A stretch of DNA of 64,000 nt, taken from assembly GCA_050943115.1 (NCBI GenBank), contig JBMNON010000006.1, positions 963-64,962 of the forward strand. The letters run 5' to 3'. The notes under the pieces were generated by a model. That model did not search any database and was not told the DNA's origin. It was given only the letters and a program-made list of their open reading frames with translations. The DNA comes from Patescibacteria group bacterium. Lineage in GTDB: Bacteria; Patescibacteriota; Microgenomatia; UBA12405. Positions within the stretch are counted from its first letter, which is position 1. Each line of letters starts with the position of its first letter. Made by a program: the position numbers and the translations under genes. Below, piece after piece: positions 36,096 through 64,000 of the stretch.

Positions 36096-36432
36096 TGACG
36101 ACGAGGCGATTTTGGAGGCGGTAAAAATGGCTTTGGAAATGGAAGATTACGAAGTGGAAACCTTAAGCCGGGGAGATAATGCTGTTGATGCAATCAAGCA
36201 ATTTAGCCCAAAACTAATACTGCTCGACTATCTTCTTTCCGGCGAGGACGGGAGAGAGGTGGCAAGCAGAATAAGAAGCAATAAGGAGTGTAGAGACGTT
36301 CCGATTATTATGTTTTCAGCCCACCCTAATGCTGAAAACTATGTCCGAGGTTATGGAGTCAACGGGTTTTTACCCAAACCATTTGACTTGGATGTGCTGA
36401 TCGACATGGTGGGCAAATACACTAGGGCTTAA
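36070..36432 (+). CDS. single-domain CheY-like response regulator
   Basis: It has VLVIDDDEAIL, LILLDYLL and LPKPF. It overlaps the kinase 3' end by 26 nt. Confidence 0.8.
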   Translation: MIKRVLVIDDDEAILEAVKMALEMEDYEVETLSRGDNAVDAIKQFSPKLILLDYLLSGEDGREVASRIRSNKECRDVPIIMFSAHPNAENYVRGYGVNGFLPKPFDLDVLIDMVGKYTRA

Positions 36433-43313: not shown

Positions 43314-46300
43314 TAATTTTTAAAAACTGGTCAGTGCTCTTGGACCAGGAAAAGTTTTTAGACCATTTCAAGCTACCCTTTTCCAGCTTATGCCTTAACT
43401 TTTCGTTATTTATCAACAGGTTTATTTTTTTTGCAAATTCAGGCGCATTGCCCTTGGTGACTAAAAAACCGGTGTGGGGGTTTTGGACGGAATCACGAAG
43501 ACCCGGGACATCTGAAGCAATAACGGGAGTACCGGAAGCATTGGCTTCTATGGCTGATATACCCCATCCTTCCATAGATGAAGGCTGAACAAATATCCAG
43601 GATTGGCTAAGTAGTTTTACTTTTGCTTCTTCGCTAACTTTACCTAAGAATTGAACAAACTTGTCCAACCTTAAGTCTTTTACTAACTGCTCCAGATACT
43701 CTCTACTTTCTCCAAATCCGGCAATTTTTAAAGTCGCCTGCGGGTTTTTCTGAACTACCAGCTTCATGGCTCTTATTAGGGTATCTATAGATTTGTAGGC
43801 TTTAAGACGGCCTAAATACAGAATCGAAGGGTTAATGGTTTTTTTCTGAGGATGAAACTTACTATCTTCGACTCCCGGATTAATAATTTCGATAGGAAAG
43901 CTAGTGCCGAATCCGAGTTTTTCCATGTCTATTTTTGAAGAAGGAGAAATTGTGACCATTTGAGTATTTTTGTAAACCTTGGGCATAAGTTTTCCTTCCA
44001 GAAAGCAGGCCAAAGAAGCCATGGGGGCAGAGAGATTTTGGCGAAAGACATTCTGATGGATGTGATAGAGAAGCCCAATTTTTGGTTTACGACTAAAAAG
44101 AGGTGAAAAGAAAGGGACTCCGTTTATAGAGTCTATGATTACATCTGTCTTTTTTCTAAAAGAGAAGAAGTATTTGATGAAGGCCCACAAATACACCGTA
44201 TAAAAACCGCCTTTCCTAACAACTTTCACACCATCAATATATTCTTGCGAGGGTGAGCGGCGATCATTGCTGCAAAATAAAGTGACGTTGTGACCAAGCG
44301 ATACCAGCCTTTTGGCGATTTCATGAACATAAACTTCGGCGCCCCCTGACCAAATGTGCCGGATATCCCGCCAATTGAAAATTAGAATGTTTAACTTTTG
44401 CTTTTCTTTTTTCGGAGAGTCTTTTAGGTGAAGTCCATGAATAGTTTTCTCCCAATAGTGGGGCTTAACTATAAGTTGATAGAAAGCAATTCCGGCGGCC
44501 ACCGAGGCCATCAACCAGTAAAAGGGTACGAGAAAAACATACTTCATCAGCCACCAGTATTTCCTTTTGGCCAAACCTATCATGTAATAGTAGAGAAAAA
44601 GAAAATTTCCAAATACAAAGGATGCCGCAGCCATATAGAAAATTACGGGGGGATAAAGGGACTCGATAGTGGGGCCGACCAGACTGTTGAGGGCAAAGTA
44701 AGAGATGGTTGTCAGCCACATAAACGGATTAATAAGCATAAAGGCAATCTTGCCACCAATAGAAAGATGAAAAAGTACAGTATGCCAGCCATGACGACGG
44801 AAAAAGCTGATGGGGTCACGAAGATGAACAAGATAAGTTTGAATGTAGCCTTTAACCCAACGGGAACGCTGCCGAAGCCAGTTTTTGGGGTTACTGTTAG
44901 CTTCTTCAAAAGTAACGGAGTCGACGATGGCGGTTTTGGCTCCCCTTTTGAAAAGGCGAATACCAAGATCCGCGTCTTCGGTGACGTTAAAAGGGTCCCA
45001 ACCTTCAAGTTCGAGTAAATCTTTGGTTCTAAAATGATTGCTGGTTCCGCCAAGAGGAATTACAGTATTAACAGTTTGAAGCCCGGTGAGAATAACGTCA
45101 AACCATAGGGAATATTCGGCTGTAAAAAGGCGGGTAAGAAGGTTTTGGTTGGAGTTATAGTAGTTGAGTTTGGCCTGAATGCATTTAACGTCAGAGCTGA
45201 CTTGCTTAAAAGCCAGGTACACCTTTTTTAATTGAAGAGGATCCGGCGAATCTTCGGCATCGTAGATTACAAGGAAATCCCCCTTGGCATGATTTAATCC
45301 GTAATTACATGCCTTGGGTTTAGTTTTAGGTTGAGATTCGGGGACAATTAGGATACGGATATATGGAGGCAAATCCAGTTCATAGGCGGTTTGAACGGTT
45401 TCCTTATCGTCCTTCTCCAAAAGGAGGATAACATCTAGTTTATCTTTGGGCCAGTCAATTTTACTTATAGAATTAAGCAAGTCCGGCAACACCTTAGCTT
45501 CCCGATACATGGGGCAAAGTATGGTATAGACAGGCAGCTCTTTGTCGCGAAGGGTATTAATTTTTTGCGAAGAGATTTCAATTTCCGGCGGAAAATGAAG
45601 ACTGCGTAAAATCAGAATCAGATTGAAGGTGAGATCAATAAAATAAGCAAAAGTGAGAATGGCGGTAAGGGCGATTAGGGTGTTTAAGGGAGAGATTGCT
45701 AAAAATCCCAGAATCAAGGCGATTATCGATAGTAAGGCAATTTTTTGCCAGAGAACCAGAGTATGAACAGCGGAATATTTATGTTCAAGGGTTGTGTGAG
45801 TAATAAACTTAGCCCGATGGTGGATAACTCCAGCCCCGGTCATGGAATTAACGTCACCGGGATCTATCTTTAGCGGTTTTTGCGAAGTAAGATTGAATTT
45901 AACAAATTGATTGCCAAATTCCCTGAACAAAGAGAGTAGTTTTATTTTGGATTTACGGTATGAATGACGATTAATCAATGCTTTAGTCTGGCCGACGGTA
46001 AATCCCATTTCGAGAGAGGTCCGGATTAGAGGGGTTAGTAAATTAAATTTTGTAATATCGACGGCTTCAATTTGTCTGAGAATGTCACTTTTGACCACAA
46101 AGGGTTCGATGGTGCCGGAAAGTCTAATTTTTTTGTAAGAAAAAGATCCGGGTTTCTTTTCTACCCTTAATTCAGAAGCGAGAACAAGTCCGTAAAGCTG
46201 TGTTAGTTCGAACATTTCAGACATAATTTCAGGGGGATAATCAGAGTCGATATCCAATACGGCGATGTAAGGAGAGAAAGATAGAACTAAAGCTTCCAGG

Positions 46301-46542
46301 ACTGAAAAGGTCTTGCCCGATTGGCTGCGCTTTTTTTTGTACTCCAAGGGGTAATATTTAGACAGCACTCTTACAGTCTGCCGCAGGCTACCGTCCCGAC
46401 TTTCATCTAAAATTATGGCTTTATAAGCAATGTTGTTTTTGGTTAATTCGAGATTTAAGCGCTTCAAATAGGATGATAAGGGCTTGGTCTGACTTTTGGT
46501 CAAAATAATCACATCCAATAGTGTCAAGGCATTTTTTGGCAT
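43291..46542 (-). CDS. 1,083-aa tripartite fusion: N-terminal GT2-like domain, a processive cellulose-synthase-like GT2 (D, DxD, TED, QxxRW) with TM helices, and a C-terminal GT4 (GT-B) domain
   Basis: The synthase region has YDAEDSP, VTEDADLG and QRSRWVKG. Multiple TM helices flank the synthase domain. The GT4 region has EGWGISAIEANASGTPVIASD. Confidence 0.75.
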   Translation of the reverse strand: MPKNALTLLDVIILTKSQTKPLSSYLKRLNLELTKNNIAYKAIILDESRDGSLRQTVRVLSKYYPLEYKKKRSQSGKTFSVLEALVLSFSPYIAVLDIDSDYPPEIMSEMFELTQLYGLVLASELRVEKKPGSFSYKKIRLSGTIEPFVVKSDILRQIEAVDITKFNLLTPLIRTSLEMGFTVGQTKALINRHSYRKSKIKLLSLFREFGNQFVKFNLTSQKPLKIDPGDVNSMTGAGVIHHRAKFITHTTLEHKYSAVHTLVLWQKIALLSIIALILGFLAISPLNTLIALTAILTFAYFIDLTFNLILILRSLHFPPEIEISSQKINTLRDKELPVYTILCPMYREAKVLPDLLNSISKIDWPKDKLDVILLLEKDDKETVQTAYELDLPPYIRILIVPESQPKTKPKACNYGLNHAKGDFLVIYDAEDSPDPLQLKKVYLAFKQVSSDVKCIQAKLNYYNSNQNLLTRLFTAEYSLWFDVILTGLQTVNTVIPLGGTSNHFRTKDLLELEGWDPFNVTEDADLGIRLFKRGAKTAIVDSVTFEEANSNPKNWLRQRSRWVKGYIQTYLVHLRDPISFFRRHGWHTVLFHLSIGGKIAFMLINPFMWLTTISYFALNSLVGPTIESLYPPVIFYMAAASFVFGNFLFLYYYMIGLAKRKYWWLMKYVFLVPFYWLMASVAAGIAFYQLIVKPHYWEKTIHGLHLKDSPKKEKQKLNILIFNWRDIRHIWSGGAEVYVHEIAKRLVSLGHNVTLFCSNDRRSPSQEYIDGVKVVRKGGFYTVYLWAFIKYFFSFRKKTDVIIDSINGVPFFSPLFSRKPKIGLLYHIHQNVFRQNLSAPMASLACFLEGKLMPKVYKNTQMVTISPSSKIDMEKLGFGTSFPIEIINPGVEDSKFHPQKKTINPSILYLGRLKAYKSIDTLIRAMKLVVQKNPQATLKIAGFGESREYLEQLVKDLRLDKFVQFLGKVSEEAKVKLLSQSWIFVQPSSMEGWGISAIEANASGTPVIASDVPGLRDSVQNPHTGFLVTKGNAPEFAKKINLLINNEKLRHKLEKGSLKWSKNFSWSKSTDQFLKIIESSYGK

Positions 46543-50151: not shown

Positions 50152-52350
50152 TTACCGGGCAATATATATTTTTAGAGTTTTTTCGGCAATTATATTGTCC
50201 TGGTTGTCTTTAGCTACAAATTTTAGATTGTAAGGACCATTTCCCTGCCAATCCCAGGAGGAGACGTCGACCAAAATTTCTTTATGAGGATGATCTTGGT
50301 TATTGTCGGGCATTTCATTTAATTGACCATCATCCACCTGCCAATACATTTTGTAGTCTGATAGATTGTAGCCCTTTAGGAGAGCCTTGAAAGGCTGGGT
50401 GCCGCCAATGGTGACGCCGTCAGAAGGCCACCAAACTTCAATCTCGTTTTCAGTTGGCGCAGCAGTTTGGGTCGGAGTAGGAGTGACTGGATTTTGGGTA
50501 GGAGTGGCGGCGGGTGTCGAGGGTGTTTGAGTGGGTGTGGCGCTCGGGCCTGATGTCGGATTCGGAGTGGCCGTTGCCGGAGGAGTGGTAGGTGTCGGAG
50601 TGAGGGTTGAGGATTGGTCGACAGTAACATTATCAACGTTATCGAACCAGATAATTAAAGAGGACCAATAATTTTCAAAGACACCGACTTTTAAACGATA
50701 TTCTCCGGTCTGGGTTGGTGCCCACATGGATTTGAAGTTTGTTACTTGTCCTTGGGTTAGGTTCTGATTATCAAAAACTTTTTGATAAACTTTATTTCCA
50801 GAAGAATTGTAAAGCTCAATGTCAACGATTACGTTACTAAGGTTGCGGTCAGGAGTAATATCTGTACTAATTTCCACCGGCTGATTTACTAGTGGAGTTG
50901 AGGGAGTGAAAGAAGATACGGCTTTAAAATTAGACGGCATATCCGGTGTTGAACTGTCAGACTGAAGAACTCTGAAGTTTAGCAGATCATCCTGCCAATG
51001 ATATAAAGACGACCAGCCGGAGGCGAATATGCCCAATTTCAACTGGTAATCTCCAGGGTTAGAAGGATTCCAGTCAACATTAAATGTCGAAACTTGGGCT
51101 GAATTTAGATCTTTATTTTCGAGGTAGCGTTGAAAGACTTTATTGCCGGAGGAGTCATATATTTCAATATCGACAATGACACTACTTATGTTATTTTGAG
51201 GTTTAACATTGACAGTAACCGTAACATTTTGACCGCTATGAGGAGAGGCGGGCTCGAGGCTGACTGAAGTTTCAAAATCCTGGGGAGATTGGGGGTCGCC
51301 AGGATTGGAAGAAGAACCGCTACCAAACCATTGAGCCATAACTTCTTGGGCAGGTTTATTCTGGGGAGTATAGCTACTGGAGCCGGTACCGCCGGCATTG
51401 GGATTGGCTTCCCACTCCCACCAGTGAATCCCCTGCATAAACGAATGTTCATTCCAAAAGGAGAAAAGGGCTTCATAGTCCCGTGATTGTTCTTCCATGT
51501 CAACAGCGTCGTTACGCCACCAGGCGGCAGGTTCTTTGTGGGCACCGTTAACACTTCTGTACCCAATTTCAGTAAAAAGAACCGGTCTCCCCCACCGAGA
51601 TGATAAAGGGGCAATTATTTCGCTATTCCAATTACTCCAAGATTCTTTAAGTTGATCGACGGTGGGCTCGTCTATACCGGTAGCCAGGGGAAAATAGGCA
51701 GCATAACCGATATAATCCAACTGATCCCAAAATTGAATTTCACTTCCCTCCCGGGGAGTAGTGTGTTGGGCACTATAAGTTAAGGTTCCGGAAAAACGAG
51801 ACCGGACTTGAGAGATTAAATCAATCCAAAGCTGAGTATTGCGGGGATCATGATTATGGCTGGTAAGGTTATAAGTTTCAGAACCCAGACAAATTTGAGC
51901 AACCCCTGTTTCTGAAGCAATATCAGCATAGTAATTGAGAATACTGCCATAAGTCTGAAACCAAGTATCTTTATCAGATGGTTCTATATAACGGCGCCAT
52001 TCGCCATTCGAAATCTCGGGATGAACCTTGAGCATAACGCTTAGCCCAATTGATTTGGCGTAGTTTATCCCGCTTCGCAAAGACTCGTCAGTGGGCGTAT
52101 TCCAGCCTCGATATAGATTATTAGAATTGCGGCTGTCCTGATAATAGGGAATGATTAAGGTAACAAAGTTAGCATTGGCGGATTTGAGATTGTTCAGAGA
52201 CTGCCGGAAGGAGTCGGATGAATAGATGGTGGTCGAATTGGGCATAATAGTAGCACCTTTTTGCCAGGAAGAAACCTGAGCATTCACTTTTGTAGTAGAA
52301 AATAAGAAGAACAATAGAAGCAGGATTTTTGCCAGGACTTTTTTCAGCAT
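50152..52350 (-). CDS. secreted clan GH-A (TIM-barrel) glycoside hydrolase, possibly mannanase-like, with two tandem ~100-aa modules, a PT linker and a C-terminal beta-sandwich domain
   Basis: It has a signal peptide and a nucleophile-like VLFTEIGY. The two modules (VDIEIYDSSGNKVFQ...YQLKLGIF...; VDIELYNSSGNKVYQ...YRLKVGVF...) are paralogous to those of the GH5 gene at 10858-12831. Confidence 0.65.
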   Translation of the reverse strand: MLKKVLAKILLLLFFLFSTTKVNAQVSSWQKGATIMPNSTTIYSSDSFRQSLNNLKSANANFVTLIIPYYQDSRNSNNLYRGWNTPTDESLRSGINYAKSIGLSVMLKVHPEISNGEWRRYIEPSDKDTWFQTYGSILNYYADIASETGVAQICLGSETYNLTSHNHDPRNTQLWIDLISQVRSRFSGTLTYSAQHTTPREGSEIQFWDQLDYIGYAAYFPLATGIDEPTVDQLKESWSNWNSEIIAPLSSRWGRPVLFTEIGYRSVNGAHKEPAAWWRNDAVDMEEQSRDYEALFSFWNEHSFMQGIHWWEWEANPNAGGTGSSSYTPQNKPAQEVMAQWFGSGSSSNPGDPQSPQDFETSVSLEPASPHSGQNVTVTVNVKPQNNISSVIVDIEIYDSSGNKVFQRYLENKDLNSAQVSTFNVDWNPSNPGDYQLKLGIFASGWSSLYHWQDDLLNFRVLQSDSSTPDMPSNFKAVSSFTPSTPLVNQPVEISTDITPDRNLSNVIVDIELYNSSGNKVYQKVFDNQNLTQGQVTNFKSMWAPTQTGEYRLKVGVFENYWSSLIIWFDNVDNVTVDQSSTLTPTPTTPPATATPNPTSGPSATPTQTPSTPAATPTQNPVTPTPTQTAAPTENEIEVWWPSDGVTIGGTQPFKALLKGYNLSDYKMYWQVDDGQLNEMPDNNQDHPHKEILVDVSSWDWQGNGPYNLKFVAKDNQDNIIAEKTLKIYIAR

Positions 52351-53203: not shown

Positions 53204-53632
53204 ATGGCATCGACGGGACTAGCTACTTTTGACAACACCATTCAAGAGACTAATGAGTTACTAAAAGAAATTGAGGTTTCGATGGGTTGGACTGACAGGA
53301 GAGAACAATCTTATTCAGCTTTACGAGTGGTACTTCAGGCACTAAGAGACAGACTGCCTTTAGTAGAAGCCGTAAATTTGGCCGCCCAACTACCTATGTT
53401 GATAAGAGGGCTATTTTATGAAGGCTGGAATGTAAGCGATGTACCTATAAAAATGGATAAGGAAGAATTTCTGGATAGAATAAGGGAAAATTTTGTTTAT
53501 TCGATAGATGTTAGTATTAGTGATATGGTCAAAATAGTGCTTTTGGTAGTGATGGAGAGTATCGATTTGGCTGAAGCAGAAAAAATAAAGGCCGTATTGC
53601 CGAAAGACGTAGCTGATCTTATAAAGGTTTGA
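53204..53632 (+). CDS. DUF2267 family protein
   Basis: The sequence SYSALRVVLQALRDRLPLVEAVNLAAQLPMLIRGLFYEGW matches the DUF2267 signature. Confidence 0.5.
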   Translation: MASTGLATFDNTIQETNELLKEIEVSMGWTDRREQSYSALRVVLQALRDRLPLVEAVNLAAQLPMLIRGLFYEGWNVSDVPIKMDKEEFLDRIRENFVYSIDVSISDMVKIVLLVVMESIDLAEAEKIKAVLPKDVADLIKV

Positions 53633-54248
53633 TTAGGGCTGGATTGTCATTGTCCGGGGAGTTGACGGCTGCAGATACCGGGTGGAAATCGAGAGGGTAT
53701 TTGGGAGCATCAGTTAATATGGAATTTAAGACGGGATCATCGTCTGGCGCCCGCAACCACAGCGTTTCTTGACTTGGGGCCAGGATCAAGGGCATGCGAT
53801 TATGGATACTTTTTACGGTACTATTGGCGGCGGCAGTAATAATGGTGTAGGAATCATTTTCGTAAATACCAGCAAAAGAAAAATATTTAGATTCCCGGGA
53901 GTAAAAGTAGAAAGGAATTTTGCCATTAGAGCTATTTTGCCATTCATAGAAGCCACTGGCCGGCACAAGGCAGCGCCGATGACGAAAAGCTGAGGCGAAT
54001 GAAGGTTTGTGTGCAACCGATTCCACCCTGGCGTTAATTATTTGTCGAGAAAGAGATTTGTCCTTTGCCCAAGCGGGGATAAAACCCCACCGCATGGATT
54101 GAAGCGTGTTTTCGCCATTTGCAACTAAGATTATTGGAAGTAGTTGTGATGGAGAGATGTTGTAGTGGGATTCGAAGTTCACGGTGCCCGGTAGCGAAAA
54201 CCTTTGGTTAAAGGAGGAATGATACTCAAGGGTATAGCGACCACACAT
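53619..54248 (-). CDS. SOS-response-associated peptidase (SRAP/YedK; abasic-site DNA-protein crosslinking)
   Basis: The catalytic N-terminus is MCGRYTL. It also has YNISPSQ, MRWGFIPAWAKD, INARVESVA and CLVPASGFYEW. The upstream 20 codons of the ORF track are discarded because SRAP proteins start at Met-Cys. Confidence 0.85.
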   Translation of the reverse strand: MCGRYTLEYHSSFNQRFSLPGTVNFESHYNISPSQLLPIILVANGENTLQSMRWGFIPAWAKDKSLSRQIINARVESVAHKPSFASAFRHRRCLVPASGFYEWQNSSNGKIPFYFYSRESKYFSFAGIYENDSYTIITAAANSTVKSIHNRMPLILAPSQETLWLRAPDDDPVLNSILTDAPKYPLDFHPVSAAVNSPDNDNPALIKPL

Positions 54249-54252
54249 AGTT

Positions 54253-55413
54253 CTATGATTCTTTGGGAGATGCAGAAAATAACGACAATAAAAAGCTTCC
54301 CAAGCCAAAAAGGAGTACGAAGAACCAAATAATTACTCCAAGAACGGGAATGAATAAAATAATATATAAAAGAATAAGACCGATAATAAAGGTCCAAAAC
54401 GAGGAGATGTTAAGATTAAGTTTCTGACTTAACCAGGTCCCAAACCAGACTGCGGGAAAGATTTTAGCAACAAATAAAGTTATCAAGAAAAGAGTAAATA
54501 AAATTAACGCCAAGGGAATAGTCAAGGCCAAAACAAACAACACAAACAATAGAACCGGGGCAAGCAGTAAGGTCAGGAAACCAACACCCAGAGACTTGAA
54601 GGGTTGTCGGGCAATTAAGTAAGATGACTTGTCTACGAGTCCGGGCAGATAACGAAGCAGAAGAAGGCCGATAATTAGGGAAGAAATAAAGTCAGCTAAA
54701 GATGCACCAAAAAAGATGTTACCAAGAACCCGAGGGGCTTCCCTTCTAATTCTGCCGTTATCCCCATCCAATTTGAAGCGAGATTCTCTTTGGATTGTTT
54801 CGCCACTTATTTGAGCATCTTCACTAATAGATACCCGGGCGTCCTGATTATAAGCCAAGTCCCGGTTTACGCGAGTATTAGAGGCCAGAGTTAAGTTGGA
54901 AACAAGGGCTTCAACACGACCGCCAATCTGGTTATCTACTAACAGACTTTCAGAAGCGACAATCAGGTCGCCCCCGATCGGAGCTAAAACATTAATGTTC
55001 CCGGCAGCAGCCAGGATTCCTCCGGAAACCGTAGCTTCCGGTGTAAGCTCGAGGTTTCCCGCAGCAACCGTCAGATTGTCACCAATATCCCCTGTTACAG
55101 TGACCTGACCCCCTATAATGACAAGATCGTCCCGGATAGTTCCGGACACAAGAACAGTTCCACCGACAGCAATAAGATCTCCGTTTATTGTGCCGCTAAC
55201 AATAACCTGTCCACCGGCAACATATACATCGGCAGTTATAGTTTCAGAGATTGTAACAGTATCGTTGGCGGTAATATAAAAGTTGTTGGTAAAAAGGTTG
55301 TTTTCGACAACAGGTGGTCCTTGGGGGAACTGTGTGGACGTTTGGGCAAAAGAGATAATCCGGCATGTAAAGAAAGTCAATAGAAGAACAGAAATAATTG
55401 TCAGTTTCTTCAT
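54253..55413 (-). CDS. secreted beta-helical repeat (bactofilin/DUF583-like GDL repeats) domain fused to a C-terminal polytopic membrane domain
   Basis: There is a signal peptide. The repeat region reads VSGTINGDLIAVGGTVLVSGTIRDDLVIIGGQVTVTGDIGDNLTVAAGN. The C-terminal part has about 6 TM helices. Confidence 0.4.
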   Translation of the reverse strand: MKKLTIISVLLLTFFTCRIISFAQTSTQFPQGPPVVENNLFTNNFYITANDTVTISETITADVYVAGGQVIVSGTINGDLIAVGGTVLVSGTIRDDLVIIGGQVTVTGDIGDNLTVAAGNLELTPEATVSGGILAAAGNINVLAPIGGDLIVASESLLVDNQIGGRVEALVSNLTLASNTRVNRDLAYNQDARVSISEDAQISGETIQRESRFKLDGDNGRIRREAPRVLGNIFFGASLADFISSLIIGLLLLRYLPGLVDKSSYLIARQPFKSLGVGFLTLLLAPVLLFVLFVLALTIPLALILFTLFLITLFVAKIFPAVWFGTWLSQKLNLNISSFWTFIIGLILLYIILFIPVLGVIIWFFVLLFGLGSFLLSLFSASPKES

Positions 55414-55509: not shown

Positions 55510-55989
55510 TTGTCGTCTGATAAATTGAATAAGGTGAAAATAGACAAGTATAGATTCGTAGTTCAAAAGCATAATTCTTCCCGAAAACATTTTGACCTAA
55601 GATTAGAATTTAAGGGTATGTTGAAAAGTTGGGCCGTACCCCAAGGAATTGCATTAAATATAAACGAAAAAAGGCTGGCTATTGAAACAAAAGACCATCC
55701 CATGGAATTTCTAGATTATGAAGATAATTCAAACGGCCATAACGGCGAAAATAAAAAAATGGAAATTTGGGATAAGGGAACCTACGCGCCAATTAAGATA
55801 AAACCAAGTGAATCAAATGAAGAGGTGCTGGAAAGCGGTTTTAAGAGGGGTAAAGTTAGCTTGTCTTTAGAAGGGGAAAAACTGAACGGAGAATATGCAT
55901 TGGTAAAAACCAGTTTTAAAAGCAACGACCACTGGCTTATTATTAAAAAACAAAAAAAGACGAAAAGAAGTAGTAAAATTAATATATGA
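55510..55989 (+). CDS. standalone LigD 3'-phosphoesterase (PE) domain protein
   Basis: It has RFVVQKHNSSRKHFDLRLE, SWAVPQG, RLAIETKDHP and IWDKGTY. Confidence 0.75.
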   Translation: MSSDKLNKVKIDKYRFVVQKHNSSRKHFDLRLEFKGMLKSWAVPQGIALNINEKRLAIETKDHPMEFLDYEDNSNGHNGENKKMEIWDKGTYAPIKIKPSESNEEVLESGFKRGKVSLSLEGEKLNGEYALVKTSFKSNDHWLIIKKQKKTKRSSKINI

Positions 55990-56778: not shown

Positions 56779-57876
56779 ATGGATTGGGAAAGGATAACTA
56801 ATGTAAAAAAAATAGCCGTGCTAAGAGCCAATGCCATAGGTGATTTTATCTTTGTGTTGCCGGCCATAAGAGCCCTTCGAGAGACGTATCCGGAAGCTGA
56901 AATTGTGTACTTGGGAAAACCCTGGCATAAATCATTTCTAAAAAGCAGACCAAGCGATATTGACAGAGTTATCGTAGTTCCAGTTTCACATGGGGTTAGA
57001 GAGGAGATAGGAATAATAGAGAAGAAAGAAGAACAGGAAGATTTTTTTAAAGAAATTAGAAAAGAAAATTTTGACCTTGGTGTACAACTTCATGGGGGCG
57101 GCAAGAATTCAAATCCATTTTTATTAGGCATAGGCGCTAAATTTAACATAGGAACAAAAACTCCTGATGCCGTTGAGTTAGACAGGTGGGTGCCATATAT
57201 CTATTATCAGAGTGAAATATTGAGATACCTTGAAGTAGCGGCGTTGGTGGGTGCAAGAACAGCAGAAATAGAGCCAAAGCTGATGGCAACAAAGGAAGAC
57301 AGGGATGAAGCAATAAAAGCCATCGAAGGAGTTAAAGATACTTTAGTTGTGATGCACCCCGGCGCTTCCGATATAAGAAGACAGTGGCCGGCGAATAACT
57401 TTGCCAAGATAGGAGACGAACTGGCCGAAAAGGGAGCAACCATAGTTCTGACTGGTGTTGATTCAGAAAAAGATACTACGGATACGATAATGAGGATGAT
57501 GAGACAAAAAGCATTTAATTTGAACGGTAAATTAAGCTTGGGAGGAATGCTGGGATTGCTTTCTTTAAGTGATTTGGTGATTTCAAACGACACTGGACCG
57601 CTACATCTGGCTGAAGCGGTAGGAGCCAAGACGGTGGGGATATATTGGTGCGGCAATCTGATTAATGCAGGACCCATGACAAGAACAAAACACCGACCCT
57701 TGCTTTCATGGACAATAAACTGCCCTATTTGCGGTTACGATGTAGCAAAACTCGGATTTCCTTTCTACACAAAACCTTTGGACTGCAAGCATGCAACATC
57801 ATTTGTAATTGACATATCAGTCGACGAAGTCAAACAAAACGCAATGGAGCTCTTGAACCAGAAGGCGGCGAAATAA
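56779..57876 (+). CDS. GT9-family glycosyltransferase (heptosyltransferase-like)
   Basis: It has KKIAVLRANAIGDFIFVLPAIRALRETYPEAEI. The C-terminal GT-B half reads SNDTGPLHLAEAVGAKTVGIY. Confidence 0.75.
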   Translation: MDWERITNVKKIAVLRANAIGDFIFVLPAIRALRETYPEAEIVYLGKPWHKSFLKSRPSDIDRVIVVPVSHGVREEIGIIEKKEEQEDFFKEIRKENFDLGVQLHGGGKNSNPFLLGIGAKFNIGTKTPDAVELDRWVPYIYYQSEILRYLEVAALVGARTAEIEPKLMATKEDRDEAIKAIEGVKDTLVVMHPGASDIRRQWPANNFAKIGDELAEKGATIVLTGVDSEKDTTDTIMRMMRQKAFNLNGKLSLGGMLGLLSLSDLVISNDTGPLHLAEAVGAKTVGIYWCGNLINAGPMTRTKHRPLLSWTINCPICGYDVAKLGFPFYTKPLDCKHATSFVIDISVDEVKQNAMELLNQKAAK

Positions 57877-58242
57877 AAAATTTTTTGAGGGTTTTATTGA
57901 TATATTTTTTCTTACAGGCCTTTTACTTCTTACGAAAATATTAATTCTTCAGTAAGTTAGGTTACCCTTGATAAAGTCATAATTGATTGCCTTACCTTGC
58001 GTATTTACTAGAATTACTTGAAGAATTGATAAAAGGGTTGAGGTAATAAATAATCTTTTTCTTGCCCAGTGAGCTAATACAATAGCAGAATTTTTCAAAA
58101 GACGTACGTGTAATAATGCCCTATATTTATGGATTCTTTAAAATGTTTTCTTCCCCTATTCTTACCGTCTTATTACTATGATCTCACTGCTTGAGAATAA
58201 GATACAAGAAACATATTAAGTTCAATATTATTTTGATATAGG

Positions 58243-59292
58243 ATGAGAAGTAGCAAGATTTATCAGGTGTTGGGGAATAAAGTAAAAAAAATAGCAATTT
58301 TCAGAGCATTAATGCTGGGAGATTTAATGTGCGCCATCCCCTCAATCAGAACAGTAAGGTATAGCTTTCCTGATGCAGGGATATTTTTAATAGGATTACC
58401 TTGGTCTAGAAACTTTACAGAAAGATTCAACCACTATTTTGACGGATTTGTCGAGTTTCCGGGCTATCCAGGACTTCCCGAGAGAAAAACCGAAACAAAA
58501 AAAGTAGTCAATTTTCTCAAACAAGTTCAGAGAGAAAAGTTTGATTTGGCTTTACAAATGCAGGGCGATGGTTCAATCGTCAATCCATTAGTTGATTTGT
58601 TTGGGGCAAAAGTAGTAGCCGGATATCGACTGAAAGGGACATACAAGGACGGAGACGATATGTTTCTGGAATATCCTGCCAAGCTGCATGAGATTAAGCG
58701 ACATTTGGCCTTGATGGAGTATTTGGGACTTGAGAGTCGGGGTGTAGATTTGGAGTTTCCCGTAGAAAATTGTGAACAAGAGGGAGCCGACAGACTACTT
58801 GGCAGCTTTGGAGTCGAAAATAGAAAATTTGTGGTAATCCACGGAGGGGCAAGAGATGAGAGGCGAAGATGGAAGGTCGAGTATTTTGCCCGAATGGCTG
58901 ATTATATTAAGGATAACGGCTATGCCGTGGTAATTACAGGCAGCAAAGAAGAAAGAGAAGTTACCCAAAATATTAAAAGATTAGCGACAATCGAAGTTGT
59001 CGATCTTGGTGGAAAGACTAACTTGGGAATTTTTGCGGGCGTACTTAAAAGGGCCAGATTAGTGATTAGCAATGATACAGGAACTTCCCATTTGGTGGCT
59101 GCATTAAAAATTCCAAGCGTAATAATTTTTTCACCATATTCTGAATTAAAAAGATGGGCCCCTTTAAACAAAAAAATTCATAAGACGGTAAGTGCCAGTA
59201 AATCAAACAATTTTGAATACGTTTTGGAGCAAGTGGCAAAGTCCTTGAAAAAGAAACTGCCAAGAGAAGTTGAAAGTTATCAAAAGGCATGA
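58243..59292 (+). CDS. GT9-family glycosyltransferase (heptosyltransferase-like), paralog of 56779-57876
   Basis: It has KKIAIFRALMLGDLMCAIPSIRTV and SNDTGTSHLVAALKIPSVIIF. Confidence 0.75.
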   Translation: MRSSKIYQVLGNKVKKIAIFRALMLGDLMCAIPSIRTVRYSFPDAGIFLIGLPWSRNFTERFNHYFDGFVEFPGYPGLPERKTETKKVVNFLKQVQREKFDLALQMQGDGSIVNPLVDLFGAKVVAGYRLKGTYKDGDDMFLEYPAKLHEIKRHLALMEYLGLESRGVDLEFPVENCEQEGADRLLGSFGVENRKFVVIHGGARDERRRWKVEYFARMADYIKDNGYAVVITGSKEEREVTQNIKRLATIEVVDLGGKTNLGIFAGVLKRARLVISNDTGTSHLVAALKIPSVIIFSPYSELKRWAPLNKKIHKTVSASKSNNFEYVLEQVAKSLKKKLPREVESYQKA

Positions 59293-60293
59293 AAATAAAA
59301 GTTCTGACGTGGCATGTCCATGGCAGCTATCTTTACTACCTGAGCCAATGCAACTGCGATTTCTATCTTCCGGTAAAAGCTGACGATAGTCCCGGGTATG
59401 GGGGTAGAGCCGGAAGCTTCAAATGGGGCAATAATGTAATAGAAGTTGAAGCAAACGAGGTTAAAAAGCTAAGGGATATAGATGTAATATTATTTCAATC
59501 CAAAGACAATTATCTTAAAGATCAGTTTGAAATACTAAACGAGAGACAAAGACTGCTTCCCAAAATATATCTGGAACATGATCCCCCAAGAGAACACCCC
59601 ACCGATACCAAACATGTTGTTAACGATCCCAATTCGCTTTTGATAAACGTGACTCATTTCAATGACCTCATGTGGGACAGCCAAGCGACGCCATCAAAGG
59701 TCGTAGATCACGGTGTTATTATTCCGAAAAATGTTGTTTACAGCGGAGAGCTGAACAAGGGAATAGTCGTGGTCAACAATCTCGCCAAAAGAGGCAGGAG
59801 ATTGGGCTGGGATATTTTTAAAGAGGTCAGAAAGGAAATTCCGCTGGATTTAATCGGAATGGGTTCTGAGGAGATCGGAGGATTGGGAGAGGTGCCTCAC
59901 GACGAAATCGGGGAATTTATTTCAAAGTACAGATTCTTTTTTAATCCAATCAGATATACCAGCTTAGGGTTGGCAGTACTGGAAGCAATGACGGTGGGGC
60001 TGCCGATCCTGGGGCTAGCAACAACTGAAATGGTCACAGCAATAAAAAACGGAGTGAACGGATACATAGATACTGACATAAATATTCTTGTAAAAAGGAT
60101 GCGGCAGCTTTTAACAAATCCGGAAAAAGCAAAAAAATTAAGTGCGGGGGCAAAAAGAATGGCCGATAAACGGTTTGGCATTAAGCGCTTTGTTGCCGAA
60201 TGGGAAGGGATTTTGTCGCAAACTGCAGCCAGAATAAGTTATTCGAAGATGCAGGGTATTTTATTTAAGTCAACGGAGGTATTTAAGGAATGA
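59289..60293 (+). CDS. GT-B fold glycosyltransferase (GT4-like C-terminal half)
   Basis: It has LGLAVLEAMTVGLPILG. Its N-terminal half is atypical. Confidence 0.55.
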   Translation: MKIKVLTWHVHGSYLYYLSQCNCDFYLPVKADDSPGYGGRAGSFKWGNNVIEVEANEVKKLRDIDVILFQSKDNYLKDQFEILNERQRLLPKIYLEHDPPREHPTDTKHVVNDPNSLLINVTHFNDLMWDSQATPSKVVDHGVIIPKNVVYSGELNKGIVVVNNLAKRGRRLGWDIFKEVRKEIPLDLIGMGSEEIGGLGEVPHDEIGEFISKYRFFFNPIRYTSLGLAVLEAMTVGLPILGLATTEMVTAIKNGVNGYIDTDINILVKRMRQLLTNPEKAKKLSAGAKRMADKRFGIKRFVAEWEGILSQTAARISYSKMQGILFKSTEVFKE

Positions 60294-62218
60294 AGAAAAG
60301 AAGGATTATGTTTATTTCCGAACACGCCTCCCCCTTGGCCTCTATAGGGGGATCTGACAGTGGAGGACAAAATATTTACGTGGATAAGGTGTCGACGGAA
60401 CTAGCAAAAAGAGGCTTCTTGGTTGACGTATTTACGAGGAAAGACGACAAAGACTTACCGGAAGTCGTTGATTGCCATAATGGGGTCAGGGTAATTCAAG
60501 TTACGGCCGGTAAACAATGTTTTGTGCCAAAAGAAGAGATGCTGCCCTTGATGGGAGAGTTTGAGGCGGAGATAGAAAAATTTGTAGCAAGGGGAAAGTT
60601 AATGTATGACCTAATTCACGCTCATTTTTTTATGTCAGGGTTGGTGGCAATAAACTTAAAAAGGAAACTTCAGACCAAAGTGGTGATAACTTTCCATGCT
60701 TTAGGTAAAGTGAGAAAAATCTACCAGGGAGACAGTGATAAATTCCCCGAAGAAAGATTGAAAATTGAAGAAAGGATAGTCGGAGAAGCTGATGCTATCG
60801 TTGCTGAGTGCCCTCAGGACAAGGAGGATTTAATTAATTTGTACCAGGCTAATAAGAAAAAAATTTCGATAATCCCCTGTGGATTTGATCCGAATGAGTT
60901 AAAGCCGATTGATAAGGTGTTTGCCAGGAAATTGCTAGGGCTGAATGTTGACGATAATATTATTTTGCAATTGGGAAGGCTGGTGCCGAGAAAAGGAATT
61001 GCCAATGTCATTAAGGCCGTCGGGATCCTTCATAAGGAAGAAAAGATTAGCGCAAGGCTTCTGGTGGTGGGCGGTGAAAGTGAAACAGCCAATCCGGAGA
61101 TAACTCCGGAAATCGGTAGGTTGCAAAAGATCGCCAAAGAGAGTGGAGTTTTTGATAAGGTAGCTTTTTTAGGTAAAAAGGGCAGACACGTAATAAAAAA
61201 TTATTATTCTGCCGCAGACGTATTTGTTAGTACACCCTGGTATGAACCATTTGGCATTACGCCCTTGGAATCAATGGCCTGCGGGACTCCGGTGATAGGA
61301 TCCAGGGTCGGCGGAATTAAATATTCGGTAGCAGAAGGTGAAACTGGACTTTTAGTGGAGCCAGAAAAACCAAGAGAGCTGGCTTATGCATTGAAGGACA
61401 TATTGAGCAATAAAACGATGGCTACAAAAATGGCAATAAGATCAATTTATCGAGTTAACAAATACTTTAAGTGGTCAGATGTAGCCAAAATGATGGAGAA
61501 CTTATACGAGGAAGTATTGCAGCCTGATAAGGACAAAGCATTGAGTAAAGGTAATTATTCTAAGGTTGTAGAGGCAAATTTTCAAAGACTGAGGGAAGAT
61601 CTATTGAAAACAAAAAGTGAGATAAGCCAATCCATCGTAAGTACAACAAAGCTTCTTGTAGGTGTTCTCCAAAATAAAAAGAAGGTCTTTGTAGCAGGCA
61701 ACGGCGGCAGCGCCATGGATGCCCAACATTGGGCAGCGGAAATGGTAGGACACTATATGCTTGATGACAGAAAACCCCTGGCAGTGCTATCTTTGACAAG
61801 TGATACGGCAATTATTACGGCATTAGCCAATGATTTTAGCTTTGATGAAATTTTTTCAAAGCAAGTTGAGGCGCTGGGTGATGAGGGCGATGCTTTAGTT
61901 TTAATTAGCACCAGCGGAAATTCCAAGAATTTGCTGAACGCGGCAAAAGCCGCCAAGAAACAAAAAATGTTGGTGGTTGGACTACTAGGTAAAGAGGGAG
62001 GAAAGTTAAAAGAACGGTGCGATATCTCCATAGTGATACCATCCGATAGCGCTCAAAGTATTCAGGAAATCCACATTAACATTATTCACACCATTTGCGA
62101 GCTGACAGAAAAAGAATTAATTGGTAAGGCGGAAATATCTAAGAAACAAAAAGAATATCTAAAAAGACAGTTAACAAGTCCAGACAAAGAGGTGTACTAT
62201 GGAAATTTTGAAAAATAA
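60290..62218 (+). CDS. gmhA: fusion of a GT4 glycosyltransferase (about 400 aa) with a C-terminal SIS-domain sedoheptulose-7-phosphate isomerase (GmhA)
   Basis: The GT4 region has EPFGITPLESMACGTPVIGSRVGG. The GmhA region has VFVAGNGGSAMDAQHWAAEM...DALVLISTSGNSKNLLNAAKAAK. Confidence 0.8.
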   Translation: MKKRRIMFISEHASPLASIGGSDSGGQNIYVDKVSTELAKRGFLVDVFTRKDDKDLPEVVDCHNGVRVIQVTAGKQCFVPKEEMLPLMGEFEAEIEKFVARGKLMYDLIHAHFFMSGLVAINLKRKLQTKVVITFHALGKVRKIYQGDSDKFPEERLKIEERIVGEADAIVAECPQDKEDLINLYQANKKKISIIPCGFDPNELKPIDKVFARKLLGLNVDDNIILQLGRLVPRKGIANVIKAVGILHKEEKISARLLVVGGESETANPEITPEIGRLQKIAKESGVFDKVAFLGKKGRHVIKNYYSAADVFVSTPWYEPFGITPLESMACGTPVIGSRVGGIKYSVAEGETGLLVEPEKPRELAYALKDILSNKTMATKMAIRSIYRVNKYFKWSDVAKMMENLYEEVLQPDKDKALSKGNYSKVVEANFQRLREDLLKTKSEISQSIVSTTKLLVGVLQNKKKVFVAGNGGSAMDAQHWAAEMVGHYMLDDRKPLAVLSLTSDTAIITALANDFSFDEIFSKQVEALGDEGDALVLISTSGNSKNLLNAAKAAKKQKMLVVGLLGKEGGKLKERCDISIVIPSDSAQSIQEIHINIIHTICELTEKELIGKAEISKKQKEYLKRQLTSPDKEVYYGNFEK

Positions 62219-62927
62219 AGTAGCGATTGTAACAGGTGCTGCCCAAGGATTGGGAAAAGAGATAAGTATGACTCTGGCTAAAGCAGGAATGAGGGTGGTG
62301 TTGGCAGATTTAAATGAAGAGAAACTTATAGAAACAGTGACAGAATTACAAGGTGGGAACTTAATCGTGGAGGGGGTGGTTTTAAATGTAGCTGATGTAG
62401 AGGAAAGTAAAAATATCATAGACGATGTATTTGCAAGGCTAGGAAGGTTGGATGTGTTGATTAACAATGCCGGGATTGATGTCACCAAGTCGGTTAAAGA
62501 AATGAGTCCGGAAGAATGGGATAAAGTAATCGCTGTTAACCTAAGAGGGCCATTTTTGATGACCAAACAAGCTATGACGAGAATGGCTGACCAAGAAGAA
62601 GGCGGACATATCGTAAATATTACTTCAACAGCAGCCAAAAGGGCCTGGGCAAATGCCGGGGCTTACCATGCCAGCAAATGGGGGCTTTTAGGATTCAGCC
62701 ATGGAATGCATGTAGAAGGAAGAGGAGATGGGGTGAAAGTGACGGCGATAATAGCCGGAGGTATGAAAACCCCATTCATTTTAGACCGGTTTCCCGATGT
62801 TGACCCTAGCGTTTTGCAGGACCCAAAAAATGTCGCTAACGTAGTGAAGTTTGTCCTGGAACAACCGGAGGGAACCGTTATTCCGGAAATTATGGTTTTG
62901 CCTGTAAAGGAAACATCATGGCCATAG
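62199..62927 (+). CDS. short-chain dehydrogenase/reductase (SDR)
   Basis: It has VTGAAQGLGKEI, NNAG and YHASK. Confidence 0.8.
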   Translation: MEILKNKVAIVTGAAQGLGKEISMTLAKAGMRVVLADLNEEKLIETVTELQGGNLIVEGVVLNVADVEESKNIIDDVFARLGRLDVLINNAGIDVTKSVKEMSPEEWDKVIAVNLRGPFLMTKQAMTRMADQEEGGHIVNITSTAAKRAWANAGAYHASKWGLLGFSHGMHVEGRGDGVKVTAIIAGGMKTPFILDRFPDVDPSVLQDPKNVANVVKFVLEQPEGTVIPEIMVLPVKETSWP

Positions 62928-63508
62928 TAAATAATAGAGCAGTATTCGTAGATAAAGATGATACGGTCAATTTTGACAAACCTTTTTACAACTACAATCC
63001 TGACTTGATCAAGATAATACCAGGAGCCAGTGAAGGGTTGTCCATGTTAAGGGAGAAGGGCTATAAGGTGGTGTTGGTAACAAACCAAAGCGGTGTAGCC
63101 AGAGGATATTTTGAAGAAAAAGATTTGGCTCCCCTTTTTGAAAAGCTGCAATATCTTTTAAACTTTCGGTTTGATGGGATTTATTACTGCCCACATTACA
63201 TTGGAGGATCTGTAAATGACTTTGCGGTTGCTTGTGAGTGCAGAAAACCGGAGATTGGACTGTTGCTTAAGGCAGCAAAAGAGTTATCTTTTGATTTGAA
63301 CAGCTCCTGGATGGTCGGAGATCGCACCAGTGATATGGAGGCAGGAAAAAGGGCGGGGTGTAATACCGTTATGATAGACAGGAACTGCGAATACACAGCT
63401 TTCCCCCTGGCTGATTATATTTGCAGAAATATGAAAGAAGCAGCAGAAATTATTGTTAGCAGTCTGGAGGACAACAAACATGAAAAAGAGGCTAAGGGAA
63501 ATCATTAA
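62918..63508 (+). CDS. gmhB: D,D-heptose 1,7-bisphosphate phosphatase (GmhB, HAD-IIIA)
   Basis: It has AVFVDKDDTVN (HAD motif I), VTNQSG, CECRKP and GDRTSDMEAGKRAG. Confidence 0.8.
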   Translation: MAIVNNRAVFVDKDDTVNFDKPFYNYNPDLIKIIPGASEGLSMLREKGYKVVLVTNQSGVARGYFEEKDLAPLFEKLQYLLNFRFDGIYYCPHYIGGSVNDFAVACECRKPEIGLLLKAAKELSFDLNSSWMVGDRTSDMEAGKRAGCNTVMIDRNCEYTAFPLADYICRNMKEAAEIIVSSLEDNKHEKEAKGNH

Positions 63509-64000
63509 AAACTTTGTTGGTAAAAAGATATTGGTAATAGGCGATATTATGCTGGACGGTTATTTTCAGGGGCATTCTGAAAGGATAAGCCGGGAAGCAC
63601 CAGTTCCAATTGTTGATGTGGAAAAGGTTTATGAGGTACCCGGGGGAGCTGCCAATACAGCAGTTAATATAGCGGATATGGGGGCAAGCTGTAGAATCAT
63701 GTCGATTGTCGGTGAGGATGGTAATGGGAGAAGATTGGTTTCAAAGTTAAAAAATAAAGGAATCGGAGTCGAGGGAATATTGTGGGATAAGACCAGGAAA
63801 ACCTTGGCTAAAAGAAGAGTGATGGCTGATGGTCAGATGGTGGCCAGATATGACTTTGGCGAAAAAAGTTGTTTGACTCGAATACAAGAGAGATCGGTGG
63901 TAAAAAACTTAAAAGGAAGTTTCCCGGATGCAGATGCCGTGATTATTTCCGACTACGATTACGGGTTTTTGACGGATCGAGTAAAAGAAGAAATTGAGAG
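63480..64000 (+). CDS. hldE: heptose-7-phosphate kinase (PfkB-family RfaE/HldE domain I), 3'-truncated by the window end
   Basis: The ATG at 63480 overlaps the gmhB 3' end. My own translation gives KKILVIGDIMLDGYFQGHSERISREAPVPIVDV...VPGGAANTAVNIADMGA, matching the HldE kinase N-terminus. It is not in the ORF track because no stop falls inside the window. Confidence 0.8.
   Translation, partial: MKKRLREIIKNFVGKKILVIGDIMLDGYFQGHSERISREAPVPIVDVEKVYEVPGGAANTAVNIADMGASCRIMSIVGEDGNGRRLVSKLKNKGIGVEGILWDKTRKTLAKRRVMADGQMVARYDFGEKSCLTRIQERSVVKNLKGSFPDADAVIISDYDYGFLTDRVKEEIE

Follow-up and report, generated by a model that had tools for sequence, protein, structure and literature searches.

Heptose and family-9 glycosyltransferases (GT9) are usually taken as signs of lipopolysaccharide (LPS). 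NDP-heptose enzymes also occur outside Gram-negative bacteria (Tang et al. 2024), as in the septacidin and hygromycin B pathways, and homologues of GmhA, HldE and GmhB are widespread beyond LPS producers, including in the Candidate Phyla Radiation (CPR); ADP-heptose biosynthesis has been reported in the CPR class Paceibacteria (Chiriac et al. 2022, PMC9166423). A Gram-positive system with such genes is the cwg locus of Streptomyces coelicolor, comprising 12 genes (SCO6179-6190) of the sigmaE regulon that are induced by cell-wall antibiotics (Hong, Paget and Buttner 2002). It includes a dehydratase (cwgD), a putative heptosyltransferase (cwgE), a phosphoheptose isomerase (cwgH, a GmhA) and a bifunctional HldE (cwgI), next to a divergent deacetylase (SCO6178), and its first gene, cwgA, is also salt-responsive (PMC13011467). 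Here we analysed a stretch of 64,000 nt (the window; contig JBMNON010000006.1) that carries at its 3′ end a run of heptose-pathway and glycosyltransferase genes, hereafter the cassette. The explanation we favour, with modest confidence, is that the cassette belongs to the cwg type, makes a heptose glycan, is self-contained and horizontally distributed, and is carried by an LPS-free bacterium. The locus is a compact and self-sufficient addition to a widespread cassette family rather than an oddity.

An exact-protein look-up retrieved a 44,958-bp Logan contig (L001) that agrees with the window without a mismatch across an overlap of 11,083 nt and extends it by 9.5 kb, so that the combined span examined was 73.5 kb. 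Genes were called from a listing of open reading frames (ORFs) and from profile searches of their translations (Pfam and NCBIfam/TIGR models). The genes named in the initial annotation (two GT9 genes, a GT4-GmhA fusion, a short-chain dehydrogenase/reductase (SDR), GmhB and a PfkB-type kinase) were all found in place on the plus strand (Table 1), and the adenylyltransferase that had been sought by extending the contig was located as domain II of HldE (rfaE_dom_II, 200.6 bits, over the cut-off of 181.5). Starting with GT9b, each gene abuts the next or overlaps it (4-29 nt), which points to an operon. GT9a is the only cassette gene outside this tightly packed arrangement, set off by a gap of 366 nt that probably holds the promoter of the GT9b-to-GT2 operon; a promoter and terminator scan of the cassette gave no signal above shuffled sequence, with promoter-like sites at chance level. 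The cassette encodes six glycosyltransferases, all soluble: three GT9 enzymes, a GT4 resembling sucrose-phosphate synthase (SPS) and MshA, a short GT-B enzyme (GTBh) and a GT2. None of the nine cassette proteins has a credible membrane segment by hydropathy scan.

The pathway enzymes encoded are a GmhA domain, the HldE kinase, a GmhB-like phosphatase and the HldE adenylyltransferase, a complement that shows a locus with the predicted ability to make ADP-D,D-heptose. The GmhA domain matched TIGR00441 (E 7.5e-54, 182 bits, cut-off 209) and NF010546 (E 5.9e-58, 196 bits, cut-off 276), scores that fall under the cut-offs as expected for a fused domain, and it matched GmhA 1tk9 in the PDB (E 8.7e-46). 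It has the catalytic and metal residues of the isomerase (H480, E484, Q592 and H600), which are invariant among the fusion proteins aligned. HldE is a kinase fused to an adenylyltransferase, with the motifs GAGD and HPGH present and a kinase-domain score (rfaE_dom_I, 251.9 bits) under the cut-off of 345. The HAD-IIIA phosphatase scored 148 bits against the GmhB model NF006506 (cut-off 178) and 134.9 bits against TIGR00213 (cut-off 149.6); its best PDB match was Escherichia coli GmhB (3l8e, E 8.7e-33), and it carries all of the GmhB motifs (DxDxT, TNQSG, CxH..CxC, RKP and GD). Neither an extended SDR nor an Epimerase domain that could represent the HldD 6-epimerase was found in the cassette or elsewhere in the 73.5 kb. 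The SDR of the cassette was rejected as an HldD epimerase, being a 242-aa protein of the classical rather than the extended type. It is probably NAD-dependent and has the motifs TGxxxGxG and YxxxK; a (3R)-hydroxyacyl-CoA dehydrogenase domain is the closest PDB entry, and orthologs at 48-65% identity were present in 50 loci. It is the one SDR within the interval; the other SDR and GT-B enzymes that had been described as surrounding the pathway belong to a separate minus-strand locus (Table 1). Promiscuity towards CDP- or UDP-heptose through the STTR5 motif (F/L)XXGRSTT was also considered and dropped, as the motif is not present and the window reads RIGDKSTS.

The GT4 domain of the fusion has as its best PDB matches Thermosynechococcus elongatus SPS (6kih, E 2.4e-67) and Corynebacterium glutamicum MshA (E 6e-65), followed by H. 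orenii SPS and GlgM; these nearest solved relatives all glycosylate a sugar phosphate or cyclitol phosphate. In T. elongatus SPS, R105 and R178 hold the acceptor phosphate and H158 and E331 are catalytic (PMC7264703). In our alignment the former pair corresponds to K81 and R156 and the latter to H136 and E319, and none of the four residues varies among 22 fusion proteins. At the positions of the MshA phosphate ligands Y110 and T134 the domain has F113 and A137, and it remains under the equivalog cut-offs of both families (MshA, 286 vs 462.5; SPS N-domain, 124 vs 576). Taken together, these comparisons suggest a GT4 that would work like SPS and MshA while belonging to neither family.

The initial annotation regarded the fusion as unusual and as a channel from isomerase to transferase. 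The first view did not hold: in a search of 5.8 billion proteins the best 120 clusters were all fused (621-726 aa, 48-57% identity; named sources among them were Balneolaceae, Chloroflexi, Anaerolineaceae and Deinobacterium), as were ~31 of the 80 best species-level loci. As to the second, the AlphaFold model of the fusion consists of two well-folded domains with a predicted TM-score (pTM) of 0.64, joined by a linker (aa 414-423) with a predicted local distance difference test (pLDDT) score <50. The disordered linker and the pTM do not support a fixed interface between GT4 and GmhA, and rigid coupling of the two domains was set aside on this model. The fusion would thus reflect shared pathway membership rather than demonstrated channelling. 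Nothing specific was found in the literature on a GT4-GmhA fusion, or on the cassette in cyanobacteria, Chloroflexi or CPR.

GT9a and GT9b match PF01075 over the gathering score (104.9 and 105 bits; cut-off 22), GT9c matches heptosyltransferase models (E 5e-28), and all three carry the N-terminal GD motif. GT9b has both the GD and NDTG motifs, a longer ORF start being needed to retain strand beta-1 and GD; in GT9c the same two features are recovered when the ATG at L001:12076 is taken as the start. Against the equivalog models of the LPS heptosyltransferases HepI, HepII and HepIII (WaaC, WaaF and WaaQ) the three proteins reached at best 79, 74 and 98 bits, with cut-offs of 134.6-185.3. GT9a and GT9b retain both HepI-type Asp motifs. 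In the clade of GT9c, the most conserved GT9 of the cassette, NN(T/S)G replaces ND(T/S)G in 39 of 41 scorable orthologs, at an Asp that we take to be the position of HepI Asp261. GT9a alone has a CPxC...CxH insertion in its C-terminal lobe, of which C315, P316, C318, C336 and H338 are invariant in 30 orthologs. Its AlphaFold2 model (pLDDT 92.6) is closest in fold to 3tov (a Veillonella GT9), WaaF and WaaC. Fold matches to WaaF and WaaC (E 1e-18 to 1e-13, TM-score 0.66-0.79) rank above that to TibC (13th match, E 1e-7, TM-score ~0.54). The AAH/TibC model TIGR04414 did not match GT9a or GT9c and gave only E 0.0094 (14.9 bits vs a cut-off of 200) for GT9b; by this family model and the fold ranking, GT9a was ruled out as a TibC-like protein heptosyltransferase.

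Also among the best fold matches of GT9a were subunits of the plant chloroplast NDH-PSI supercomplex (9grx_1, 7wff_a and 7f9o_6; E 7e-13 to 1e-9), and on this structural comparison a subunit of a photosynthetic complex appears to have a GT9-like fold.

GTBh has a GT4-type donor half. A PDB profile search matched only its C-terminal ~110 aa, to generic GT4s, and its N-terminal ~200 aa matched no solved structure. Residues W8, H9, H11, G12, H97, H109 and H141 are invariant in 32 orthologs. The resulting signature, WHxHG ... EHDPP ... H ... H, stands where GT4s usually have a glycine-rich loop. A relationship to glucosylsucrose synthase was rejected, the similarity being generic and confined to the C-terminal GT4 part.

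The protein identical to the fusion is labelled by NCBI as coming from a metagenome-assembled genome (MAG) of a Patescibacteria group bacterium, from a group predicted to be Gram-positive-like (PMC9166423). Of the ~40 window ORFs of at least 150 aa that were scanned together with GT9a, the giant ORF described below being left out, none encodes an Lpx, Kds, WaaA, Lpt or Bam domain, and the gene table of the 9.5-kb extension contains no lipid A or Kdo gene. The non-LPS context proposed for the pathway is supported by this lack of any lipid A, Kdo or outer-membrane gene in 73.5 kb, and the proposed Gram-positive-like surroundings agree with the Patescibacteria label and with two sortase genes, which lie a few kb beyond the point downstream of GT2 where the genes converge (L001). 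From taxonomy and context, a lipid A pathway in the host is unlikely.

The cassette is widely distributed. When one genome was scanned for each GTDB species, relatives of the GT4 domain turned up in at least 593 species of ~12 phyla. With individually inspected loci included, fused forms span eight phyla, among them Chloroflexota, Cyanobacteriota, Bacteroidota, Actinomycetota, Patescibacteria and Myxococcota; the remaining loci, without the fusion, belong to Burkholderiales, Planctomycetota, Acidobacteriota, Gemmatimonadota and further groups. In Deinobacterium chartae and in one MAG each of Chloroflexi and Balneolaceae the genes are the same and stand in essentially the order of the window, and Roizmanbacteria likewise share gene set and order. 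To describe the anatomy of the family, ten window proteins were mapped onto 83 loci. The core, present in >60 loci, comprises GT4, the GmhB-like HAD phosphatase, GT9c, GT9b (63 of 83 loci) and GTBh (67 loci, usually directly upstream of GT4). The most constant adjacency is GT4-(GmhA/SDR)-HAD, seen in 68 of 74 informative loci, with GT9c next in 61. As judged from gene order, the constant backbone is an SPS/MshA-like GT4 followed by a putative GmhB-like phosphatase and then a GT9. Active-site residues are conserved in GmhA, GT4, the GmhB-like HAD and the GT9 enzymes. The SDR (50 loci), HldE (35) and GmhA are optional modules. GT9a is an accessory member; the pair that it forms with GT2, present in the window and uncommon elsewhere, tends to travel together. 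Two genes frequent in other cassettes are not in the window, one for a carbamoyltransferase (43 loci) and one for a GT2 whose C-terminus has membrane helices (41 loci). Related cassettes vary in a modular way by carbamoyltransferase, pyruvyl transferase, UXS and membrane-anchored GT2; decorations of the carbamoyl and pyruvyl type are typical of envelope glycans.

The distribution of the supply genes bears on the donor of the GT9 enzymes. In the 22 loci from Chloroflexota, Cyanobacteriota, Patescibacteria, Deinococcota and Myxococcota, GmhA, HldE and HAD were each present in 20. The 14 loci from Pseudomonadota had no GmhA, a single HldE and 13 HAD genes; these counts are to be read with the caveat that the 80 loci were ranked by similarity to the fused query. 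Pseudomonadota make ADP-heptose for LPS anyway. That the supply genes are kept where the host is without heptose-containing LPS and dropped in Pseudomonadota is good indirect evidence that the GT9 enzymes would use NDP-heptose. A search of plasmid proteins found the cassette on megaplasmids of the Burkholderia group and on linear plasmids of Streptomyces, and in Proteobacteria it is an extra module on megaplasmids rather than a core LPS locus.

On the Burkholderia multivorans plasmid NZ_CP020399.1 (307311-326531), the cassette GT4 lies amid stress-type genes, for BON, DUF892, DUF4142 and DUF2795 proteins, and is neighboured by a pair of sigma-54 regulators, a PIG-L (MshB-like) deacetylase and a UXS, a setting which suggests that the Burkholderia variant is under stress regulation and possibly uses a GlcNAc donor.

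According to the heptose-glycan explanation that we favour, the GT4 would glycosylate a phosphate-bearing or otherwise anionic acceptor, which the GT9 enzymes and the other transferases would extend on the cytoplasmic side to a heptose-containing oligosaccharide, much as the LPS core is assembled, without the lipid A. The heptose would be expected in the D,D form. The product would reach the envelope as a wall-associated glycan or a glycolipid, with carrier and export functions encoded elsewhere. An envelope destination is preferred because of the cwg precedent, the WaaF/WaaC-like fold of GT9a, and the surface-glycan-style decorations and membrane-anchored GT2 of related cassettes. Several points weigh against this explanation. 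The cassette contains no lipid-carrier glycosyltransferase, flippase, ligase or membrane protein, so that export is assumed and not seen. The nearest characterised relatives of the GT4 make soluble phospho-sugar products. The Asn of GT9c at the HepI Asp261 position implies that its donor may differ, and may signal a different donor or mechanism. The check for lipid A genes covers 73.5 kb of the genome. Finally, no report of the cwg product was found in the literature searched, and cwg is the putative closest named relative by published description and through Streptomyces proxies, not through the SCO sequences themselves.

The main rival explanation, which we consider unlikely, is a soluble cytoplasmic heptoside. 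Here the GT4 would glycosylate heptose-7-phosphate, supplied by the fused GmhA, or another sugar phosphate, the HAD would dephosphorylate the product as sucrose-phosphate phosphatase (SPP) does sucrose-6-phosphate, and the transferases would extend this primer to a non-reducing oligosaccharide, either a stress solute or an MGLP-like cytoplasmic glycan. The phosphorylated acceptors used by SPS, MshA and GlgM are in keeping with this scheme, as are the retention of both SPS phosphate-binding residues (K81 and R156) and a cassette without a membrane protein. So is the pairing of GT4 with the phosphatase: a HAD follows GT4 in 68 of 74 loci, 13 of 14 Pseudomonadota loci keep the HAD with GmhA in 0 and HldE in 1 of the 14, and the adjacency is fixed even where the host already has a GmhB. 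T. elongatus offers a functional parallel, its genes for SPS and glucosylsucrose synthase being adjacent, and stress-type neighbours (BON and DUF892) in Burkholderia and the salt induction of cwgA would fit a stress solute. However, GTBh is not specifically similar to glucosylsucrose synthase, by best PDB match and motifs the HAD resembles a genuine GmhB, whose activity HldE needs anyway, and the MshA phosphate ligands Y110 and T134 are changed (F113 and A137). Moreover, the carbamoyl and pyruvyl decorations and the transmembrane-anchored GT2 of related cassettes point to the envelope. Rather doubtful, in our view, is the more specific proposal that the products of the backbone are soluble, non-reducing heptose glycosides of a new class. 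The GT4 would act on D-glycero-D-manno-heptose-7-phosphate from the fused isomerase, the phosphatase would take the part that SPP has for sucrose-6-phosphate, and the heptosyltransferases would extend the product. If true, hundreds of species, ultra-small Patescibacteria among them, would have a heptose-based analogue of sucrose and glucosylsucrose that serves as a stress solute or cytoplasmic glycan.

Protein O-heptosylation appears improbable. One or more of the GT9 enzymes, especially GT9a, would attach heptose to a surface protein, for instance the Thr/Pro-rich giant protein of the window, and the other transferases would elaborate the glycan. The invariant CPxC...CxH of the GT9a C-lobe stands at the place where the iron finger of TibC recognises its substrate, (TP)n linkers are present in the 3278-aa secreted protein of the window, and sortases lie downstream. 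Nevertheless, TIGR04414 was unmatched by GT9a and matched GT9b only at E 0.009, the fold of GT9a is nearer to WaaF and WaaC (TM-score 0.66-0.79) than to TibC (~0.54), no candidate substrate gene is conserved beside the cassette across the 80 loci, and GT9a is missing from most cassettes. In addition, cytoplasmic enzymes would need to act before export of the protein. TibC-type heptosylation is not favoured.

A conventional LPS inner-core locus of a diderm, from a misbinned contig or with lipid A made elsewhere in the genome, is very improbable. GT9, GmhA, HldE and GmhB are indeed the classic set, and the cassette also occurs in LPS-bearing Bacteroidota and Proteobacteria; against this, all three GT9 enzymes score far under the HepI, HepII and HepIII cut-offs, no Lpx, Kds, WaaA, Lpt or Bam gene accompanies them in 73.5 kb where sortases are present, the NCBI label is Patescibacteria, Streptomyces, Chloroflexota and Deinococcota also have the cassette, and in Proteobacteria it is an extra megaplasmid module and not the core locus. 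A secondary-metabolite pathway whose heptose product would resemble septacidin or hygromycin, or an anti-phage conflict system using the GT4, has an equally slim chance: ADP-heptose does feed septacidin and hygromycin B in Gram-positives and Pfam GT4-conflict does match the GT4 domain (E 2e-15), but genes of the PKS, NRPS, aminotransferase, nucleoside-forming or resistance kind are lacking, no PADLOC model matches the nine proteins (E <= 0.001), the GT4-conflict match is much weaker than the generic GT4 and SPS/MshA matches, and the cassette is a conserved core locus of Streptomyces and occurs in a Patescibacteria genome type of ~1 Mb.

The locus places a complete predicted ADP-heptose pathway and three GT9 enzymes in a reduced-genome bacterium of a group without an outer membrane, and a 10-kb cassette is a large investment for a genome type of ~1 Mb. 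The comparison also shows a single family extending over ~12 phyla, which brings its own sugar supply only where the host has none. Because the product of cwg, the only named relative, has been without a report since 2002, solving it would annotate hundreds of genomes. It would also identify a non-LPS source of ADP-heptose, an innate-immune agonist, and might show how monoderm or CPR envelopes are decorated. The version in the window, being compact and self-sufficient, is suited to heterologous expression.

Other features of the window were recorded alongside the cassette (Table 1). The giant secreted protein has beta-propeller, Calx-beta, fn3 and CarboxypepD_reg domains. Its ORF shows an abrupt switch in codon usage, GC content at third codon positions being 0.39 in the first 1890 aa and 0.63 in the last ~1330 aa, and the DNA of the GC-rich part is 53-60% GC compared with ~40% elsewhere. 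This part encodes a segment rich in Thr and Pro, whose long (TP)n linkers are of the O-glycosylation type. The ORF could be a mosaic gene, a product of horizontal transfer or an assembly chimera. An Rfam scan of the window at gathering thresholds returned nothing, including in a high-GC stretch that had looked rRNA-like. A second glycan locus, unrelated to the cassette, encodes an SDR, a GT4, a polysaccharide deacetylase, a GT2, a membrane GT2-GT4 fusion of 1083 aa and two proteins (544 and 529 aa) that have eight transmembrane segments and match no Pfam model. Two secreted glycoside hydrolases, a GH5 (cellulase-like) and a GH113, have a carbohydrate-binding domain of the Wzt_C type. This domain is best known from O-antigen ABC transporters, and its pairing with a glycoside hydrolase is unusual. 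DNA-damage genes are dispersed through the window.

Table 1. Features of the cassette and of the rest of the window. Coordinates are window positions unless prefixed L001.
Feature	Coordinates	Strand	Support
GT9a, family-9 glycosyltransferase, 365 aa	56779-57876	+	PF01075 E 5.6e-30
AT-rich non-coding gap between GT9a and GT9b, 366 nt	57877-58242	.	ORF-free, no Rfam match
GT9b, core family-9 glycosyltransferase, 349 aa	58243-59292	+	PF01075 E 5.1e-30
GTBh, short GT-B enzyme, 334 aa	59289-60293	+	Glycos_transf_1 at aa 198-290 only, E 7e-12
GT4-GmhA fusion, 642 aa	60290-62218	+	Glyco_transf_4 + Glycos_transf_1 aa 25-382; SIS_2 aa 435-567
GT4 domain of fusion, aa 1-412, SPS/MshA type	60290-61525	+	PDB profile matches
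GmhA (sedoheptulose-7-phosphate isomerase) domain of fusion, aa 425-642, including disordered tail	61562-62218	+	TIGR00441, NF010546
Classical SDR, 242 aa	62199-62927	+	adh_short E 2e-54
GmhB-like HAD-IIIA phosphatase, 196 aa	62918-63508	+	NF006506 E 2e-43
HldE, N-terminal PfkB kinase part in window	63480-64000 (gene runs ~1 kb past window)	+	rfaE_dom_I E 6e-49
HldE in full, 511 aa, PfkB + CTP_transf_like	L001:10563-12098		NF008454 391 bits
GT9c, third GT9, after HldE	L001:12076-13161		heptosyltransferase models E 5e-28
GT2, 276 aa, after GT9c	L001:13154-13984		gene table + profile search
Giant secreted protein, 3278 aa	21834-31670	-	
Second glycan locus	36422-46542	-	
Two secreted glycoside hydrolases with Wzt_C-type domain	10858-12831; 50152-52350	-; -	
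DNA-damage genes: LexA, Y-family polymerase (IMS), SRAP peptidase, stand-alone LigD 3′-phosphoesterase domain	1113-1766; 18272-19576; 53619-54308; 55510-55989	-; -; -; +	

Set against the described systems, the cassette shares features with several. With TibC and AAH (the BAHT family) it has in common the predicted use of ADP-D,D-heptose outside LPS and a Cys-based C-lobe finger, the metal finger of those enzymes lying at a position analogous to the CPxC...CxH of GT9a; in contrast to them, GT9a lacks an N-terminal beta-barrel, has three Cys and one His in place of four Cys, and does not match TIGR04414. The reports on NDP-heptose enzymes outside Gram-negative bacteria cover the supply of the sugar nucleotide and not a transferase cassette such as this one, and the STTR5 motif is not in the window. 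The LPS inner core system (GmhA, HldE, GmhB and HldD; WaaC, WaaF and WaaQ) resembles the cassette in its ADP-heptose enzymes, in GT9 folds with the catalytic Asp of the GD motif and in relying on soluble or peripheral enzymes for assembly on the cytoplasmic side. The cassette differs in being without HldD or an acceptor pathway for lipid A and Kdo, in GT9 enzymes far under the HepI/II/III cut-offs, in having Asn in GT9c at HepI Asp261, and in being centred on an SPS/MshA-like GT4 instead of WaaA or WaaG. The likeness to SPS/SPP and to MshA/MshA2 comprises the catalytic His and Glu, the donor-phosphate Arg and Lys, the two basic residues for the acceptor phosphate and a HAD phosphatase that is almost always next to the GT4, whereas the phosphatase is of the GmhB and not the SPP type, Y110 and T134 of MshA are not kept, and scores are below the equivalog cut-offs.

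Compared by published gene descriptions, the cassette is like cwg, a Gram-positive system, in combining a heptose pathway, putative heptosyltransferases and further transferases. Streptomyces loci were compared through tblastn and gene tables. The cluster on S. rimosus pSRIMHP reads GT9/pyruvyl transferase/UXS/carbamoyltransferase/GT/HAD-IIIA/GT9/GT/GT4/SIS/rfaE2/GT/GT, is 31-38% identical to the window proteins and has the order GTBh-GT4-GmhA-HldE in common with them. On a Streptomyces chromosome, a divergent deacetylase and a few unrelated small genes are followed by dehydratase/carbamoyltransferase/GT2/HAD/GT9/GTBh/GT4/SIS/HldE/GT9. The Streptomyces versions have GT4 and GmhA as separate genes, carry in addition a UXS-like dehydratase, a carbamoyltransferase, a GT2 and, in some cases, a pyruvyl transferase, and are without the classical SDR and the in-operon pair of GT2 and GT9a. 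The Streptomyces clusters that fit the cwg description belong to the cassette type and share with the window the gene order HAD/GT9/GTBh/GT4/GmhA/HldE/GT9.

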